A DNA stretch of 64,000 nucleotides from assembly GCA_963806535.1 (NCBI GenBank), contig CAWDYC010000004.1, positions 384,001 to 448,000 on the forward strand, written 5' to 3'. The stretch comes from Candidatus Bathyarchaeota archaeon (GTDB taxonomy: Archaea; Thermoproteota; Bathyarchaeia; Bathyarchaeales; Bathycorpusculaceae). A program made the translations under genes and the position numbers. The notes below the pieces were generated by a model. The model made no database searches. It was not told where the DNA came from and saw nothing but the letters and a program-made list of their open reading frames with translations. Each line of letters starts with the position of its first letter. Position 1 is the stretch's first letter. Of the stretch, positions 15,466 through 58,637 are shown in pieces.

Positions 15466-16794
15466 CTATGGGTTTGTTGGTTTTCTAAGAGCTAATGATA
15501 CTGCAGCCAACACGATTGCTAATAATGCAGCTATTTGGAAAGCAGGGACAAAACTTCCTGTTGTTGTCGCTATACTTCCCGCTATTAAAGGCCCCAGTAT
15601 AAAGCCTACCCCGCTTATGGCATTTACTAATCCTGACGCGGTTCCAGTAACTTTTGAAGGAAAATAATCGGGGATCATAGCAAATGTCACCGCAGAGGTT
15701 CCTATCGCAAAGCCCATTGCACCAACAATGACGTAAATGACTGCAATTTCTTTTCCTAAGCCTGTGAACACTAACAAACTCACCGCATACAAGATACTAG
15801 TCGTCGTTAAGACATATTTTCTTGGTACATAATCTGACATAAAACCCCATACATAACTCCCAAACATCATTGCTACCGCAAAAATGCTGAATGCACCGCC
15901 GGCTGCCAAAGGCGTCAATTTAACTTCCGTTATTAGGTAAGCTACAATAAAAAATGAGACTGTTTTGAATATAAAAACATTCAAAATATAAACGGTACCT
16001 AAGTGCCAAGTTATACCCATCTTAATTACATCTCTGCTACTTGCTTGTTCTTTTGGAGCTTTTTGCGACCTTGCTTTTGTTGTGTCCGCGGAATCTTTCA
16101 CTGGTTCTCCGCAGGGCAATAGGCCCTTTTCTTTGGGGCTATTTCTTACAAGGGCGTATACCGTTACAGTCAGGAAGAGACTTAATACGCCCAATATGTA
16201 CCAAACATTTCTCCAACCAAAAGCGATCATGATTAGTGGAACCGCTATTCCCAGCATCGCGTTCCAAAGAGTACGGGGACTATTGATGTAACTTTGTGCT
16301 ATGCCTCTTCTGCGACTACTAAACCACGCCCCCGCAAGTATTACACCTAGAGTTGTAGGTGCTCCAGCAGCGAATCCGATTATGGAATAAAAAACCATGC
16401 CAATAATAATTGAATTCATGGTTCCCATTCCTAAAGTGCCGATTGCTAGCATTAGGCATGCCAGAGTTAACGTTTTTCGCAATCCTATTTTGTCAGCCAA
16501 TATTCCCCATGAGAAAGCGCCAATGATGAAAAGAAACCCGTAGGTGGCTGAAATTGCTCCTGCTTGAGCATTCGATATTCCCACCTCTCTCTCAATATTT
16601 ACCAAGACCAGAGGCAAAGTTGACGTAGCTGTTGCCAAAACGAAGAGTGAATTTAGTCCACCAGTCGCGCAAATCCAGCCGTAATGGACTCTTGAACCGT
16701 TTTTATCTGATTGTTTTTGCGTAATCATATTAATTTGCAATCTGCCGTATTTCTTTTCTATCATATTTATTATTTTGCAAACAAAGTCGTGCAC
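15466..16794 (-). CDS. MFS transporter
   Basis: 12 TM; GILADKIGLRK and GFMSDYVPRK motif A; start probably ~16728. Confidence 0.92.
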   Translation of the reverse strand: MHDFVCKIINMIEKKYGRLQINMITQKQSDKNGSRVHYGWICATGGLNSLFVLATATSTLPLVLVNIEREVGISNAQAGAISATYGFLFIIGAFSWGILADKIGLRKTLTLACLMLAIGTLGMGTMNSIIIGMVFYSIIGFAAGAPTTLGVILAGAWFSSRRRGIAQSYINSPRTLWNAMLGIAVPLIMIAFGWRNVWYILGVLSLFLTVTVYALVRNSPKEKGLLPCGEPVKDSADTTKARSQKAPKEQASSRDVIKMGITWHLGTVYILNVFIFKTVSFFIVAYLITEVKLTPLAAGGAFSIFAVAMMFGSYVWGFMSDYVPRKYVLTTTSILYAVSLLVFTGLGKEIAVIYVIVGAMGFAIGTSAVTFAMIPDYFPSKVTGTASGLVNAISGVGFILGPLIAGSIATTTGSFVPAFQIAALLAIVLAAVSLALRKPTNP

Positions 16795-16921
16795 ACATTT
16801 CTTTTTGAAAAAGTTTCTTCAGGAATAATCATGAACTCCTATTTTCTTTCTGAAGTGTTATCTTGAAATCGTTCTCTTGCTAAGAGCTAAAGTCTAATTG
16901 ACATTTTATATTAAAGCTGAT

Positions 16922-17792
16922 TTATATGGTTGCTTCAGTTGCTTCGCTCCAAAGTCGTTCAAAATAGTCTTGAAGTACAGCAACTAGACATGGGCTGTCG
17001 GAAAATAGTTTTGGATTCTCATACTTTTTGAGAGTTTATCCATTTGCGCGTTAGCAACTTCTAAACCCAGTCGGAAAATAGTTTTGGATTCTCATACTTT
17101 TTGAGGGCGGCATTTGTGACACTTACGAATACTTGCTTTTTATCCTCAATTCTAATAGTGGCTAATGGTTTTGTGGGAGTGAATCTTATTTCGACACAAG
17201 TGTTTTTCTTCAAAGCAAAAACTTTTGGTAAACGCTGTCCGTCTTTTGGCTGGCTGATGAGATATCGGAGCCTCACATTTTTCTCAATCAATTTCTCTAT
17301 TAATTCAGTATCGTTCATAACTCGATATTTAAATTCATCGAATGAATTGATAATATCAATGGTCTTTTGAGTGGCAGTCACTGCATCTTCCAATCTTCGG
17401 TTGTATGCGTCTTTTGTGGAAATTATTATGAATTCAGGTTCTTTGGTTGCAGGGTTTTCTTTTTGGTTAACTTTGAGTCTTTCAAGCAATTCGTTGGTTT
17501 TTTTCCTGAGATCATTGTATTGATGTGCCTTTTCTTTTAGTAAGACTTCTAATCCGTCTTTTAGTGGAATAGCCCTAAACTTGGTAGGTGCACCTACTAT
17601 TTTTTCTACTAAACTCTTTTCTTCCAACTCGGTCAGTATTCGGTAGATGTCCTGACGAGCAACTGCAGAGTCTTTCCAAATTATTGAGGCTTTGGCCGTT
17701 CCCATGCGTGATATTGCCAGGTATACTCTTGCCTGAGTGCTGGTAAGTCCAATGGCTACTAAGTTTTCAACGTCTAGTTTATTGGTGGCCAT
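16922..17792 (-). pseudogene. TrmB-family regulator interrupted by a 73-bp insertion
   Basis: GLTSTQARVY...ARQDIYRILTELEEKSLVEK HTH; removing one 36-bp repeat plus the 37-bp spacer restores a 798-nt frame ending SPCLVAVLQDYFERLW, matching the paralog at 54951. Confidence 0.88.
16997..17105. repeat. Exact 36-bp direct repeat flanking a 37-bp unique insert
   Basis: GTCGGAAAATAGTTTTGGATTCTCATACTTTTTGAG at 16997-17032 and 17070-17105. Confidence 0.97.
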
Positions 17793-17854
17793 TTTATTGA
17801 CCCGGAAATCTGAGTCTTCTTTTTGATTCTTTATATTATATATATTTTGGGGGT

Positions 17855-17875
17855 TTGTCAGCGGAGCCACTTACG
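17855..17875. promoter_or_regulatory. Candidate TrmB operator TTGTC-N9-ACTTACG
   Basis: Same motif and spacing at 55799-55819 in the other trmB/propeller intergenic region. Confidence 0.55.
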
Positions 17876-17935
17876 CTAAGACCTTAAAAGTTTTGACCGA
17901 AGATTGGGCTTCACAGAAAAAAGGAAAGAACAAAC

Positions 17936-20626
17936 ATGATAAACAAAATAAATACAAAATACAAAATTTTAGCCATTGTTATCATTGCATTCTTTGTTTG
18001 CAGCGCTTGCGCAATCTCACCTATCAAAGCAACTGAATTCAAGAATGTTCCTACATACTCATATTTGCTTGCGGTTCCAAACTCTGTAGCTTTAGGTCAA
18101 TCGATGTTCCTCACTGCTTGGGTTGACAAAGTTCCACCGAATGCTGCAGTAACAAGTGGTGATCGATGGGTAAACATGACAATATACGTTACATACCCTG
18201 ACGGAAGTGTTCATACAATTGGGCCTCTTGTTTCTGATAGCGCTGGAGGTGCCTCTACAACGTTTACTCCTGCTGTGCAGGGAAATTACTCTGCGTACTT
18301 TGTTTTCCCCGGCGAGACACTCACAGGTAACCAAGGGCATCCAGATTGGCCTGTAAACCCGGCCGACACAGCAATCGGAGATTACTACGGGTCGTCCACA
18401 AGTCCAACAATCTACTTCAGCGTGGGAACAACCCCGGCATCCACGATCCCCGAAAACCCTCTTCCAACAAGTTATTGGGCGAATCCAGTAGAAGCATTTA
18501 ATCACGATTGGTACACAATTGACGGAAACTGGCTAGGCTTGGCAGACGTAAATTTCGCAAATTCCGGATGTTACTCTGTGACAGGCAACTTTAATCCATA
18601 CTCACAAGCGCCAACAACTGCACACATTGCATGGACTCGTCCAGAAATGCCCGGCGCTGCCGGTGGTCAAATGGGTGGAGAATTTGGTCCAAGCGAATCA
18701 GGCAACTACTTCGCAGGATACGAATACCAACCAAAGTTTGCGCCAATTATTTTGAACGGAGTGCTTTACTACCAATATATGCCAGGCGGAGTGCGCAATA
18801 CAATTGGAAGTGCAGGACAAGGCTGGGTTGCGGTAGATCTACATACGGGAGAAACATTGTGGACTAAGAATTACCTCAACTATTTTGGGGATGGCCAAAA
18901 TGACCTTCTTCGGTGTGGTGAAATATTGGATTATAACCATAACGTGAACTACTACGGAGGAAATACTTATCTATGGGCAACAAGAACGAACGCTAGCGCT
19001 AACTATTACGATTTGTTTGATGCAGCAACAGGAAACTACATGACGAGCGTTTCTGGGGCACCTGCCAAGGGGAATGGTCTTACTGTTGTTGAAGGTACAT
19101 ACGGTGAATTGCTGTGTTATTACATCAACGTAACCACGATCAGCGGAACTCAGTATCAGTCACTAACACTTTGGAACTCAACCAAATGCCTGAATCCTAG
19201 CGCGATGGTTCCGGATCCGATGCAAAACCAAGTGGTTCCGTGGTCTCAAGGAATAATGTGGTCAGTGCCGTTAAACAATAGTTTTAACGGAGTACCTTTT
19301 GGAAATGACATGTCAAATGGTGTTGCAACACCTGCAGGCTTTGGACTTGGAACGGAAGGACCATATACCTACACATTTGATCTTGAAAACAACATCGTGG
19401 TAATGTCAGCTGCACAAGGAGAATATACAAGGTGGGAGTGGCAAACCGGATGGACGATTGACGCTGCCTATAGCTTAACTGATGGGCATCAATTATGGAT
19501 AACAAATCGTACACAAACGCCATTCACGATATTGATGTGGTGTTCTGGTGCAACTGATGGAGTCTATGCGGTGTTTAACAAAGAGACGCTTAATTGGTGT
19601 GGTTACAGTACGCTGACAGGGAAACAGGTATGGGGACCGACTACGCCCTACAACAATACACTTGCGTATTATGATGATGAGAGTGCTTTTTGTGCATATG
19701 GCAACCTATATGGATGGACGTTTGGTGGAGAAATCTACTGCTATAACATGACGACGGGGGCTCTCCAGTGGAGCTGGAACGATGGAAACGCAGGGTTAAA
19801 TACGCCTTATGGTGTCAACACTCTCTGGATGCAAGGCACATATGATGCCACTATCGCTGACCATATTCTATATGTGCAATCAGGTCACAACTACGGTCCG
19901 CCAATGTATAGTGGCGCTCAACTTTATGCTATAAATACAACAGACGGTAGCCTTGTTTGGAGCATGTTGAACTATGCTACTGGCGGTAGCATGCCAATCT
20001 CGGATGGTTATTTGACAACCATCAATGCTTACGACAACCAAATATATGCTTATGCGCAGGGACCAACTAAAACAACAGTTAGCGCGCCTCAAACCGGAGT
20101 GACAACATCTACACCAGTAACTATAGCAGGTACAATTACTGACATCTCTCCAGGAGCATCTCAAACAGCAGTTGCAGCGAACTTCCCCAATGGCTTACCA
20201 TGCGTATCTGATGCTAGCATGTCTCATTTCATGGAAGCAGTTTACGAGCAAAGTCCAATGCCGACTAACGTCACTGGAGTTCCTATCACCATAAGCGTTG
20301 TTGACTCAAACAATAACTTTAGGCAAATCGGCACAACTACTAGCACTCCAAGCGGAACATTTGACTATACTTGGACACCCGACATCTCAGGTCACTTCAC
20401 AATCTACGCAAGCTTTGCAGGTTCGAATGCTTACTATGGATCATCGGCTCAAACAGCGTTTTACGCAAGTGAAGCAGCAGCACCTTCGGCAACCCAGCAG
20501 GTTCAAAGTGGTTTAGCGACAACCAACGATCTAATGACGTACATGGCTATCGGTGTAATAGCAATAATCATTGCCATAGCTCTAATCGGTGCTCTATTGC
20601 TGATAAACCTCAGAAAACGACCATAA
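17936..20626 (+). CDS. PQQ-like beta-propeller surface protein, C-terminal TM anchor
   Basis: Signal peptide; repeats AVDLHTGETLW, TGKQVWG, AINTTDGSLVW; GLPCVSDASM motif; Ig-like domain; TM+RKRP. Confidence 0.88.
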   Translation: MINKINTKYKILAIVIIAFFVCSACAISPIKATEFKNVPTYSYLLAVPNSVALGQSMFLTAWVDKVPPNAAVTSGDRWVNMTIYVTYPDGSVHTIGPLVSDSAGGASTTFTPAVQGNYSAYFVFPGETLTGNQGHPDWPVNPADTAIGDYYGSSTSPTIYFSVGTTPASTIPENPLPTSYWANPVEAFNHDWYTIDGNWLGLADVNFANSGCYSVTGNFNPYSQAPTTAHIAWTRPEMPGAAGGQMGGEFGPSESGNYFAGYEYQPKFAPIILNGVLYYQYMPGGVRNTIGSAGQGWVAVDLHTGETLWTKNYLNYFGDGQNDLLRCGEILDYNHNVNYYGGNTYLWATRTNASANYYDLFDAATGNYMTSVSGAPAKGNGLTVVEGTYGELLCYYINVTTISGTQYQSLTLWNSTKCLNPSAMVPDPMQNQVVPWSQGIMWSVPLNNSFNGVPFGNDMSNGVATPAGFGLGTEGPYTYTFDLENNIVVMSAAQGEYTRWEWQTGWTIDAAYSLTDGHQLWITNRTQTPFTILMWCSGATDGVYAVFNKETLNWCGYSTLTGKQVWGPTTPYNNTLAYYDDESAFCAYGNLYGWTFGGEIYCYNMTTGALQWSWNDGNAGLNTPYGVNTLWMQGTYDATIADHILYVQSGHNYGPPMYSGAQLYAINTTDGSLVWSMLNYATGGSMPISDGYLTTINAYDNQIYAYAQGPTKTTVSAPQTGVTTSTPVTIAGTITDISPGASQTAVAANFPNGLPCVSDASMSHFMEAVYEQSPMPTNVTGVPITISVVDSNNNFRQIGTTTSTPSGTFDYTWTPDISGHFTIYASFAGSNAYYGSSAQTAFYASEAAAPSATQQVQSGLATTNDLMTYMAIGVIAIIIAIALIGALLLINLRKRP

Positions 20627-54950: not shown

Positions 54951-55769
54951 TTACTCTACCCTTTTCCCGTTTTTCCATTTGGTTTCAAAGAAGTCCCTTG
55001 CCAAATTTATAATAACTGGGCTGTTTGACCAAATAGCTGGGACTTCAGCAAATTCGGCATCACCGAAAATCGCCATGATTGTATCTTTCCCGTCAAATAT
55101 GCCTAATTTAACACTAGTTTTGGAGCAGAATTTGACTTCCATTTGTGGATTTTTAACCAATTCAGCACGAATTGACTCCAGTATTTTTTTGTTCATCGAT
55201 TTTTGTACTATCCATCTTATTTTTGCACCATTGTTACTCGCTCGTTCATAAGAATCAGAGCAAGAAGTTACCCATTTCATAAGTTCATCTGGTACGATGC
55301 TATCAACGCTAATTTGACATTTCCCGATAAGTTCTTGAGCTTTATGCAAAAGCGCTTGTTTCTTATTAATTATTAGAATTTGGTCCTTTTTGCCAGAATG
55401 ATGAGGTTTTCCATAGTTTCCCATAATTTTTTTGGCAAAAAACTGCGCTTTGTTGTTTAACTCACTAAAATAGACAATTTTTTCTCCAACCAATATAGAG
55501 AAGGCATCCATAGGCGGAACTGCTCGGAATCGATTTGGTTTTGCAATTACTTTTTCAACAATGCCTAATTTTTCGAGTTCTATCAATACCCGATAAACGT
55601 CCTGCCGTGAGACACCTGAAATTTGAAACAGACTCGCAGCATTTGATTCCATTCCTAATTTGAGAAGTGCAAGATAGATCTTGGTTTGGTTTTGGGTTAA
55701 GCCTAAATTCGAAAAAAAATTAAGATCATCTTCTTTGATAGAGAGGATCATGATGTTTATTCTGAGCAT
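54951..55769 (-). CDS. TrmB-family transcriptional regulator
   Basis: LGLTQNQTKIYLAL...SRQDVYRVLIELEKLGIVEK; IFDGK...WSNSP...FFETKW. Confidence 0.9.
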   Translation of the reverse strand: MLRINIMILSIKEDDLNFFSNLGLTQNQTKIYLALLKLGMESNAASLFQISGVSRQDVYRVLIELEKLGIVEKVIAKPNRFRAVPPMDAFSILVGEKIVYFSELNNKAQFFAKKIMGNYGKPHHSGKKDQILIINKKQALLHKAQELIGKCQISVDSIVPDELMKWVTSCSDSYERASNNGAKIRWIVQKSMNKKILESIRAELVKNPQMEVKFCSKTSVKLGIFDGKDTIMAIFGDAEFAEVPAIWSNSPVIINLARDFFETKWKNGKRVE

Positions 55770-55798
55770 GAATTTATTTAATTTTCGTAAAGTTCTCC

Positions 55799-55819
55799 TT
55801 GTCGTATGTTTGACTTACG
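55799..55819. promoter_or_regulatory. Candidate TrmB operator TTGTC-N9-ACTTACG
   Basis: Contains near-palindrome TGTC-N8-GACT; matches 17855-17875. Confidence 0.55.
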
Positions 55820-55949
55820 GCTTTTTCTTAAATAGAAAATAAAAGATAGGTAGCTCGGACCTAAAAAAATTAGGTTACACAACTTTATGGAAAGAAAAAC
55901 AAAAATGAAAACGTTAATTGTAAAAACGTCAAAAAGAGGAAAATGAAAA

Positions 55950-58637
55950 ATGACTAAAAAAACAACCATATTATCACTACTGCTCATTATCGCAATGCTG
56001 ACACCCATGGCAATGTTACCATCAGCTTTTGGTCATAGCCCACCATTACAATGTAAATCGTACGCCTACATCAACGTAGCACCTAACCCTGCAGGCTCAG
56101 GGCAAACCGTCACCATCGGTTTCTGGCTAGGCATGCCCACGCCAACAGCATCCAACGTTTTCGGCGACCACTGGTCTAACATGACTATAACAGTCACAAA
56201 ACCCAACGGACAAACCGAAACCCTCGGTCCATTCACCGCAGACGATACCGGTGGTACATTCACCGTCTACACCCCTAACCAGCTTGGCAACTACACGTTC
56301 CAAATGCACTTCCCAGGACAAACCATCATAGACGCTAACCCAGTTCCAAACGAAGCCCCCGCAATCACAGCGTGGAAAGGTGACTACTTCCTACCAGCGG
56401 ACAGCCCAGTAGCTTCCTTAACAGTTCAACAAGACCCCATACCCATGTTCCCAGAAACCCCCTTGCCCAACCAATATTGGACTCGCCCAATCGAGTCAGT
56501 CAACAATTATTGGTACCAACTCGGTGGTAACTGGCTAGGTCTTGGCGGCTCAACATTCTCCAACACAGGCATGTATAACGACACTGGAAACTACAATCCG
56601 TACACCCTCGCACCCCACACATCACACATAATGTGGACTAAACCGGTTGCGTTCGGTGGACAAATCGGCGGCGAATTCGGCGGAGACCAAACAACCAACT
56701 TCTACTCAACATCACAGTACGAGCCAAAATATGATCCAGTCATAATCAACGGCATACTTTACTACGAAATGTACCCAGGTTCAACACAGGACCCAGCAGG
56801 CATCACTGCAGTTGATCTGAGAACTGGCGAAAACGTTTGGACAATAACAGACCTAAACTCTACAATACCAAACCCAATTCAGCAGCCTAAAGGCAGGGGG
56901 TCAGTTCAAGGTAACGGTGTAATCAGCTACACAACCACCTTGCGGTGTGGTCAAACGCTAGATTATGAGTCACCAAATCAATACGGTGCGCTCTCATATC
57001 TGTGGCTTCAACTAGCTGCTAACGCCCCTACAACAGCAAACTCAGGCATCTCATACGCAATGCTTGATGCAATGACAGGTAAGTATATCCTCACAATCGC
57101 AAACGGAACTTCAATGCGACTAACTGAGGATGCAGGCGGTAACCTAATCGGCTATTACGTCAACAACACTATAGGTACGATGCTCGTTAACGGTCAAACT
57201 GTAACAAGCACAGGTCCAATGCTTTACTGCTGGAACTCAACATTTAACGTCCAATTCCCCAACGGCAAAGACCCCTCATACACCGACTGGAGATGGGAAC
57301 CGATACAAGGTTCAGTTCTTGACTTCAAGCGTGGCTTAATGTGGGCCGTACCCCTACCATCAAACTATACGGGAACGCCACTTGTAGCAGGCTTAGGAAT
57401 TAGCGCAATCCAGAGCAACACTATACTCATGACCTCAACAAGCAGCCCCGGACTCAGCTTCGGTTACGGCTGGCAAATTGAAGCAGGCTACGACCAGACC
57501 ACTGGACAGCAACTCTGGATAACCAACAGAACACAGACACCCTACACCAGAATCGATATTGAAGGCGCAGGAAACGGCGTTTACACCGAAGTCTGCTATG
57601 AAACCTCTGTTTTAGAAGGCTACAGCCTACGTGACGGCAGCAAACTATGGACGACATCCCTGCCTAACCCCAACCCGTACGATAGCATCGGCGGATACAT
57701 GCATGTGGTCGCAAACAATATAGACTACATATGGTCTTTCGGCGGTAACATCTACGCTGTAAACTTTGCAGATGGCAAAATCCTCTGGACAACCGACACA
57801 AACAAAATCAGCGGTGACCCCGGCGATAACACGCCATACGGTATATGGCCACTGTGGACATTCACAGTCGGTAGCGTCGCTGACGGTATGCTGTTTGTTC
57901 CAGAAGGACACATGTACAACCCACCGCTATTCCACGGCGCACACCAATTAGCACTCAACATAACTGATGGTTCGTTGGTGTGGCAGATACTAGCCCATGA
58001 CGTTACAAGCGGACCGGCAATCTCAGACGGCATCATGACAACCCTGAGCGCATACGACAACCTAATCTACGCCTATGGGAGAGGCCCAAGCAAGACAACC
58101 GTGGCAGCACCCCAAATGGGCGTCACCACAGCAACCCCGATAACCATCACTGGCACAGTCACCGACATTTGCGCAGGTGCAAGCCAAAACGCGCAAGCGA
58201 TGAACTTCCCCAACGGTCTTCCATGTGTTTCAGATGAAAGCATGGAGCATTTCATGGAATTCGCCTACATGCAACAGCCACAAATGTACAATACAACGGG
58301 TGTAACGGTTAAATTCAGTGTTCTTGACTCAAACAACAACTTCCGAGAAATTGGACAAACAACAAGCGATGCAACAGGTGCCTATGGCTTCACCTGGACA
58401 CCGGACATTCTAGGTAACTACACCATAATCGCCAGCTTCCCAGGCACGCAATCATACTACCCATCATCCGCCCAAACTTATATCTACGCAAGCGAAGCAT
58501 CAACGCCAGTACCAACAGCAACAGTAGCGCAATCAGTCGATAACACCATGACCATAATAGGTATAGGTGTTGCCATAATCGTCGTCATAGTCATTGTTGG
58601 CGCTGTTCAAGCAATAATGATCAGAAAACGACCATAA
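55950..58637 (+). CDS. PQQ-like beta-propeller surface protein
   Basis: Signal peptide; AVDLRTGENVW, TGQQLW, ADGKILW; GLPCVSDESM; TM+RKRP; paralog of 17936. Confidence 0.88.
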   Translation: MTKKTTILSLLLIIAMLTPMAMLPSAFGHSPPLQCKSYAYINVAPNPAGSGQTVTIGFWLGMPTPTASNVFGDHWSNMTITVTKPNGQTETLGPFTADDTGGTFTVYTPNQLGNYTFQMHFPGQTIIDANPVPNEAPAITAWKGDYFLPADSPVASLTVQQDPIPMFPETPLPNQYWTRPIESVNNYWYQLGGNWLGLGGSTFSNTGMYNDTGNYNPYTLAPHTSHIMWTKPVAFGGQIGGEFGGDQTTNFYSTSQYEPKYDPVIINGILYYEMYPGSTQDPAGITAVDLRTGENVWTITDLNSTIPNPIQQPKGRGSVQGNGVISYTTTLRCGQTLDYESPNQYGALSYLWLQLAANAPTTANSGISYAMLDAMTGKYILTIANGTSMRLTEDAGGNLIGYYVNNTIGTMLVNGQTVTSTGPMLYCWNSTFNVQFPNGKDPSYTDWRWEPIQGSVLDFKRGLMWAVPLPSNYTGTPLVAGLGISAIQSNTILMTSTSSPGLSFGYGWQIEAGYDQTTGQQLWITNRTQTPYTRIDIEGAGNGVYTEVCYETSVLEGYSLRDGSKLWTTSLPNPNPYDSIGGYMHVVANNIDYIWSFGGNIYAVNFADGKILWTTDTNKISGDPGDNTPYGIWPLWTFTVGSVADGMLFVPEGHMYNPPLFHGAHQLALNITDGSLVWQILAHDVTSGPAISDGIMTTLSAYDNLIYAYGRGPSKTTVAAPQMGVTTATPITITGTVTDICAGASQNAQAMNFPNGLPCVSDESMEHFMEFAYMQQPQMYNTTGVTVKFSVLDSNNNFREIGQTTSDATGAYGFTWTPDILGNYTIIASFPGTQSYYPSSAQTYIYASEASTPVPTATVAQSVDNTMTIIGIGVAIIVVIVIVGAVQAIMIRKRP

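Follow-up and report, generated by a model that had tools for sequence, protein, structure and literature searches.

The window analysed here, a stretch of 64,000 nt that covers positions 384001-448000 of contig C4 in an archaeal assembly of 2.95 Mb (12 contigs, 91.75% complete, with an SSU rRNA scoring 1488 bits on the archaeal model), contains a minus-strand gene for a TrmB-family regulator whose 3' end is interrupted by additional DNA (Table 1). The TrmB family match (PF01978) lies in the truncated open reading frame at residues 39-103, the N-terminal winged-helix DNA-binding domain, with an E value of 2.7e-13 and a score of 50 bits, where the cut-off is 25.6. The regulator gene is divergent from that of a PQQ-repeat surface protein, which from the gene order is the presumed regulatory target of the TrmB-like protein. 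A further regulator and surface-protein pair is found at 54951-55769 on the minus strand (PF01978 at E 6.4e-15) and 55950-58637 on the plus strand, and the two paralogous divergent pairs (17061-20626 and 54951-58637), each composed of a TrmB-family regulator of about 270 aa and a C-terminally anchored PQQ surface protein of about 895 aa, suggest a regulator and surface-protein module that is repeated in the window. Outside the window, at C4:45120-45824, the same contig carries another TrmB-like paralogue (32% identity), possibly a pseudogene, with two in-frame stops in the match, one TAG and one TAA.

Table 1. Features at the interrupted regulator gene, in window positions
Feature	Position	Strand	Remarks
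Stranded 3' gene remnant	16922..16996	-	Conserved C-terminus SPCLVAVLQDYFERLW... still encoded, in the frame restored by removal of 73 nt
Pseudo-leader end, atgggct	16990..16996	+	Lies in the 3' portion of the TrmB-like coding sequence, which is on the opposite strand; adjoins the duplicated segment directly upstream
Copy 1 of the 36-nt target duplication, leader-proximal pseudo-repeat	16997..17032	+	Starts GTCGGAAAAT; exact repeat
37-nt spacer-like insert, non-local	17033..17069	+	Carries the stop codon that ends the minus-strand gene
Copy 2 of the 36-nt target duplication	17070..17105	+	100% identity to copy 1
Truncated TrmB-family regulator ORF, 269 aa	17061..17870	-	Pfam PF01978; last 24 ancestral residues replaced by WV and a stop
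PQQ-repeat surface protein, 896 aa, C-terminal membrane anchor	17936..20626	+	Divergent from the TrmB-like gene; Pfam PQQ_2, E 2e-10

A 73-nt insertion in a TrmB-family gene

The interruption has the layout that the original prediction ascribed to it, a 36-bp repeat, a 37-bp spacer and a second 36-bp repeat, with the two copies identical throughout, their starts spaced 73 nt apart, and the 37-mer between them unique in the genome. Because the bases flanking the copies are unlike (t against a before them, a against g after them), the duplication is exactly 36 nt long and the added DNA amounts to 73 nt. The truncated frame ends ...LFSDWV*, and its stop codon falls inside the 37-mer, as had been expected. 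When the 73 nt are removed by script, a frame of 291 aa is obtained from a GTG start, or one of 265 codons plus stop from an internal ATG; the latter is the 798-nt frame that had been foreseen, and its tail, SPCLVAVLQDYFERLW..., indeed aligns to the end of the minus-strand paralogue at 54951-55769.

The restored C-terminus likewise aligns with the closest orthologues found in the genus (G261, G259, G007 and G005; 44-51% identity), which have ...LFSDSPCLVALLQDYFE..W at the position of the remnant and, in all four cases, read ...LFS(D/N)(S/N)PCLVA.L..YFE..W with the insert absent. Since the paralogue and these four orthologues align through the corresponding place without an insert, the uninserted form of the gene is ancestral. 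The identity of the two copies, together with the undecayed state of the stranded 3' remnant, points to an insertion that is recent, and we infer that the function of the regulator was lost with its conserved last 24 residues.

The original prediction had also proposed a genome-wide look for other duplications of 30-38 bp that flank small inserts. A scan of the whole assembly for exact repeats that measure 18 nt or more and lie within 150 nt of one another returned 11 rows, and the combination of a repeat of about 36 nt with a unique insert of about 37 nt was seen in one row only, that of the trmB structure, with no second case among the 11. Four of the ten other rows were inspected, and comprised a tandem duplication linked to a tRNA, a low-complexity repeat in acidic coding sequence, and two repeats that were short or widely spaced. 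A further observation, outside the window, concerns a minus-strand tRNA-Thr(TGT) at C5:21327-21610, where the 5' 57 nt of the tRNA and about 70 nt upstream are tandemly repeated at a period of 127 nt with some mismatches; this is perhaps a plain tandem duplication, or else a partial copy of the tRNA such as integration leaves behind at att sites.

The 37-mer itself has a G+C content of 41%, like the genome, and by manual reading is open in plus-strand frame 1 and in one minus-strand frame. In the window it occurs once even with three mismatches allowed, and none of 100 shuffles gave a match there; in the 2.95-Mb genome it occurs once, with an exact 14-mer (E 0.22) as the best match elsewhere. 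A local template-switch copy of nearby DNA, which the original prediction had named as an outcome that would speak against it, is rejected, as the best alignment of the 37-mer to 150-10,000 nt of flanking DNA was equalled or beaten by 123 to 200 of 200 shuffles. A tandem duplication of 73 nt is rejected as well, the 37-mer being unrepeated and unrelated to the DNA on either side.

The prediction had further envisaged a search of the 37-mer against the genome and against viral and plasmid contigs, and this search showed the 37-mer to be unique in the genome and turned up no protospacer in the viral, phage and plasmid collections. The exact 37-mer was found in none of the viral, genome and metagenome contig collections; 17 phage records were returned, all with E values of at least 2 and thus at chance level; no plasmid match was found; and at up to three mismatches the 37-mer occurs in none of 119 other genomes of the genus and none of 150 other genomes drawn from the family. 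No PAM can be stated, since no protospacer was found. For an uninserted allele, the exact 36-mer had no match in the metagenome contigs, and a TrmB-protein search of the genome contig collection yielded 137 pattern matches, none of which was confirmed.

Arrays and leader-repeat junctions of the genus

The CRISPR arrays examined in other members of the genus have 37-nt repeats throughout, and their spacers measure 33-41 nt, save for two spacers in G171 that reach 45 and 50 nt. Over 265 units pooled from 11 loci, the repeat-spacer period ranges from 68 to 95 nt with a mode of 73 nt (59 of the 265), and the commoner spacer lengths include 36 nt (59 units) and 37 nt (48 units). The 73 nt added at trmB therefore equal the modal repeat-plus-spacer unit of the genus, split as 36 + 37 where the canonical unit is 37 + 36. 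The insert falls within the 33-41 nt range of genus spacers, and the target duplication is 1 nt short of the 37-nt repeat in every genus array examined.

The orientation of these arrays was established independently of the window, from a conserved A-rich leader on the side of the cas genes and from a degenerate repeat at the distal end of the array in G171. So oriented, the genus repeat ends ...ATTGAAAC, which we take to be the usual crRNA handle. Eleven leader-repeat junctions from 11 other genomes read ...aaaaatATGGCT^GTCC(G/A)AAA(A/G)G, with the caret marking the junction, or in short ...ATGGCT^GTCC(G/A)AAA, to be compared with atgggct^GTCGGAAAA in the window. Read at greater length the window has ...gacatgggct^GTCGGAAAATAG, and the boundary of the duplication falls exactly at the caret. 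Among individual relatives, the leader of G199 ends in 7 nt, atgggct, that are identical to window positions 16990-16996, and the repeat of G223 starts GTCGGAGAAT.

Weight matrices were made from the junctions of the 11 relatives, none of them from the studied assembly, and about 5.9 million positions on both strands of that assembly were scanned. The insertion junction ranked sixth with matrices spanning -7 to +9, -5 to +8 and -4 to +8, and 46th with the matrix spanning -10 to +10, ranks that are to be read in the knowledge that the matrix windows were picked after the junction had been seen and that the 11 training junctions are mutually related. The least favourable of the two-sided matrices still places the junction at about 8 in a million. 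With the repeat part only (0 to +10) it ranked 1,077th, and with the leader part only (-10 to 0) 52,967th. Its score is 17.6 bits, against a leave-one-out range of 6.5-21.9 for the real junctions, and the opposite orientation of the insertion structure scores 3.7-6.5 bits. Five other positions in the assembly score equally well and carry no insertion.

The original prediction had described the target as loosely repeat-like at both ends, and this is upheld for its start, over the first 9 nt or so, and not for its TTGAG end. Of the first 10 nt of the duplicated segment, 6-9 agree with real first repeats in the genus (9 in the case of G223), and of its remaining 27 nt, 5-7 agree, which is the chance level; by eye, from the match lines, the 3' ends of target and repeat share TTGA only. 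Over its whole length the segment agrees with real genus repeats at 11-15 of 37 positions. Since the likeness ends after the first 9 nt or so, any motifs that lie mid-repeat are missing at the target.

CRISPR-Cas machinery in the assembly and its relatives

A check of the genome for cas1 and cas2 and for an array of approximately 36-bp repeats and 37-bp spacers, as the original prediction had advised, gave one answer for the studied assembly, where neither cas genes nor an array were found, and another for the genus, where 48 of 119 other genomes encode Cas1 and the repeats are 37 nt long. In the 91.75%-complete assembly no match was obtained for Cas1 or Cas2, nor, by tblastn, for any of the cas-operon ORFs of four relatives; the ORFs that flank those operons do match (45 of 88 ORF queries had a tblastn match). 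A repeat scan of the assembly found no array-like periodic CRISPR repeats, a search for a stray canonical repeat within 11 mismatches yielded nothing beyond two matches at chance level, and no contig ends in a partial array. The sole periodic repeat that the array scan picked up is a run of 48-nt tandem repeats (GCCGTTGGAGTTGGAGACGG...) at C1:15351-15600, which also contains the C1 rows of the direct-repeat scan; it is without spacers, and therefore not CRISPR-like. The absence of cas genes is an absence from an assembly of 12 contigs and 91.75% completeness, by which absence from the genome is not proven.

In the family, Cas1 was found in 62 of 150 other genomes drawn. The operon of G171 contains Cas1, Cas3 (HD and helicase) and a Csh2-like Cas7, and on this ground the system of the genus is of type I. 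Of the four relatives examined, three (G188, G017 and G120) have an array that begins at most 90 nt from the start of a contig, the contigs measuring 17-40 kb. Short array-ended contigs are easily dropped from bins, and it is possible that a cas locus of the studied genome was lost in binning in this way. The genes that flank cas in four relatives (loci L016 and L017 in G171, L019 in G017, L020 in G120 and L018 in G188) have homologues at scattered places in the studied assembly (C3/C10/C7, C5 near 264 kb, C5 near 30 kb and C4 near 172 kb). Because these homologues are scattered, contig-internal and free of cas genes, the CRISPR-Cas locus appears to be a mobile or variable island in the genus.

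Proposed ectopic spacer integration and its alternatives

Overall, we believe that the insertion in trmB is best read as an ectopic Cas1-Cas2 spacer integration, carried out by the integrase of a type I CRISPR-Cas system of the genus type, and we would put the probability of this reading at roughly three in four. The natural ectopic spacer insertion that was originally predicted is thus supported, by the 73-nt geometry of the genus, by a junction that ranks sixth among about 5.9 million positions, and by the non-local 37-mer. In the series of events that we infer, an integrase of the genus type would have carried a 37-bp prespacer of foreign origin, and would have been misled by a sequence within the 3' end of the TrmB-family gene, atgggct^GTCGGAAAA, that by chance mimics the leader-repeat junction of a true array. 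The first strand transfer would have occurred exactly at the junction of the mimic, and the second on the other strand, at a distance of 36 nt measured off by a ruler. Once the gaps were repaired, a copy of the 36 nt would have stood on either side of the spacer, a gain of 73 nt in all, and the stop codon brought in by the spacer would have left the regulator without its conserved last 24 residues. The 36 nt, in place of 37, would plausibly come of a target that lacks the internal anchors of the repeat.

The structure is distinct from a canonical array, in that there are two copies only, the repeat is TrmB-like coding sequence, and no A-rich leader is seen beyond the last 7 nt. It has the duplication within 1 nt of the repeat length, the unrelated insert of spacer length and the in-register, junction-like target that an ectopic integration should show; a Cas1-Cas2 integrase, which should be present in the same genome, is missing from the 91.75%-complete assembly. 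The lack of an integrase gene is also a point in favour of a Cas-independent origin, whether a staggered break with overhangs of about 36 nt that was filled in and captured 37 nt of filler DNA, or the scar of an element with a long target duplication. Such an origin would sit easily with a duplication of 36 nt next to genus repeats of 37 nt, and with the failure of contig, phage, plasmid, genus and family searches to supply a source for the insert. It does not, however, predict that the boundary should lie, in the correct orientation, on a junction mimic among the top 6 of 5.9 million positions, nor that the added length should equal the modal CRISPR unit. Known IS elements and casposons duplicate far less target DNA than 36 nt; moreover, a search of 16000-18200 revealed no inverted-repeat arms at the ends of the insert, and the 37-mer is without a second copy in the genome, so that neither mark of an IS element or transposon is present. 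We consider a Cas-independent origin improbable.

Still less probable, in our judgement, is an artefact of assembly or sequencing, arising from a chimeric read, an adapter-like oligonucleotide or a loop in the assembly graph. The insertion is known from the assembly alone, the 36-mer having no exact match among metagenome contigs and the 37-mer none in any collection, and one may speculate that the lengths, 36 and 37, are those expected of a k-1 / k loop when a de Bruijn graph is built at k = 37. But an artefact would have no reason to fall on a mimic of the leader-repeat junction with a period of 73 nt, and the insertion lies in a 588-kb contig of a 12-contig assembly, with flanks collinear with an otherwise intact gene. 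As to a functional element, either 73 nt that are skipped as a small intron or by programmed bypass, or an on/off switch that works by precise deletion between direct repeats, we give it hardly any credence. Exact removal of the 73 nt does restore the frame, the perfect 36-nt direct repeats would make precise excision possible, and the downstream remnant is intact; yet a restored frame and an intact remnant are equally to be expected of any recent insertion with a target duplication, the insert is absent from the four aligned orthologues and from the paralogue, and no comparable structure is found elsewhere in the genome.

Off-target integration by Cas1-Cas2 is the favoured reading, and precedents for it are described in the literature. 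Off-target integration that gives rise to 'neo-CRISPR' loci was reported by Nivala, Shipman and Church 2018 (Nat Microbiol), as cited in 10.1101/148544, PMC7054753, PMC9456107 and PMC6698737. As those citing papers present it, the event resembles the one at trmB in that an insert of spacer size and a duplication of about one repeat, at a site that is not CRISPR, create a unit of two repeats and one spacer. In contrast, that work involved the type I-E system of E. coli, over-produced Cas1-Cas2 and supplied oligonucleotides, whereas the present case is a natural one in an uncultured archaeon, in a genus with a type I system and 37-nt repeats, within a protein-coding gene, and in an assembly from which the integrase is absent. 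Off-target integrations elsewhere in the genome were likewise detected in E. coli with over-produced Cas1-Cas2 (PMC7054753). According to 10.1101/148544, off-target events spawn new arrays, and the evidence for this in nature is circumstantial only and comes from two other species.

Other integrases offer parallels on single points. Cas1-Cas2 of Pyrococcus furiosus, an archaeal integrase like the one proposed here, integrates in vitro at non-CRISPR sites that share features of the repeat (Grainy et al. 2019, PMC6698737); in that case the DNA was a plasmid and motifs situated mid-repeat mattered as well, whereas at trmB the likeness is confined to -7 to +9 around the junction and the mid-repeat is unrelated. 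In the type I-B system of Haloarcula hispanica, duplication proceeds from a fixed leader-repeat junction to a measured distance, independently of sequence (Wang et al. 2016, PMC4872114), and displacement of the internal motifs leads to duplications of aberrant size (PMC4872114). A ruler of this kind, reckoned from the junction, would account for 36 nt at a target without anchors, although the Haloarcula repeat is 30 bp long and the arrays were engineered. Ectopic acquisition is also described within arrays of Streptococcus thermophilus and S. mutans (PMC7999890, PMC5338259, PMC8265633), where, as here, a spacer enters at a site other than the leader-proximal repeat; in S. thermophilus (PMC7999890), in contrast to trmB, the sites are internal repeats of genuine arrays, and not a gene outside any array. 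The literature covered, which did not extend to the primary E. coli paper and its supplements, yielded no report of natural off-target integration into an archaeal protein-coding gene. Within that coverage, the trmB insertion would be a natural archaeal case of an event known mainly from engineered E. coli and from work in vitro.

If the favoured reading of ectopic Cas1-Cas2 integration is true, integration errors of this sort occur in nature and are able to inactivate genes. It would also follow that some 16 bp around the leader-repeat junction seem sufficient to draw the integrase, as the target bears no likeness to the remainder of the repeat, and that the second cut is set by distance, falling one base short where the internal motifs of the repeat are lacking. 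One way to gauge the cost of self-damage that CRISPR adaptation imposes would be to screen genomes for repeat-insert-repeat structures in which the repeat is as long as the CRISPR repeat of that genome and the site scores highly with the genome's own junction matrix. A bolder extension would see at trmB a newborn 'neo-CRISPR' unit in nature, made by a wild archaeal type I integrase that needs no more than the junction of about 16 bp and a ruler, inserts anywhere in the chromosome and inactivates genes as it does so, with loss of cas as the price of self-damage. We regard this extension as unlikely. Were it true, natural populations would experience ectopic integration as a mutational force large enough to measure, and would gain new arrays by this route, and the absence of a cas locus from the studied assembly might reflect loss of the adaptation module after mis-integration.

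As a minor observation, isolated repeats of the genus type occur in several relatives. At locus L035 of G199 (C9:88256-91294), the conserved leader ending in atgggct is followed by a single CRISPR repeat (locus positions 1505-1541, ending ATTGAATC), with no spacer or second repeat within the next 1.5 kb and with cas1 (C9:87786-88649) about 1 kb away; it has the look of an empty array, or of one that has shrunk to a lone repeat. Loci L037 in G004 (C12) and L039 in G222 (C12), the latter in a genome that gave no match for Cas1, each have an isolated and degenerate genus-type repeat near locus position 1500 with homologous flanks (...caacggatgctaagg...), and these single repeats look like a conserved orphan repeat relic.
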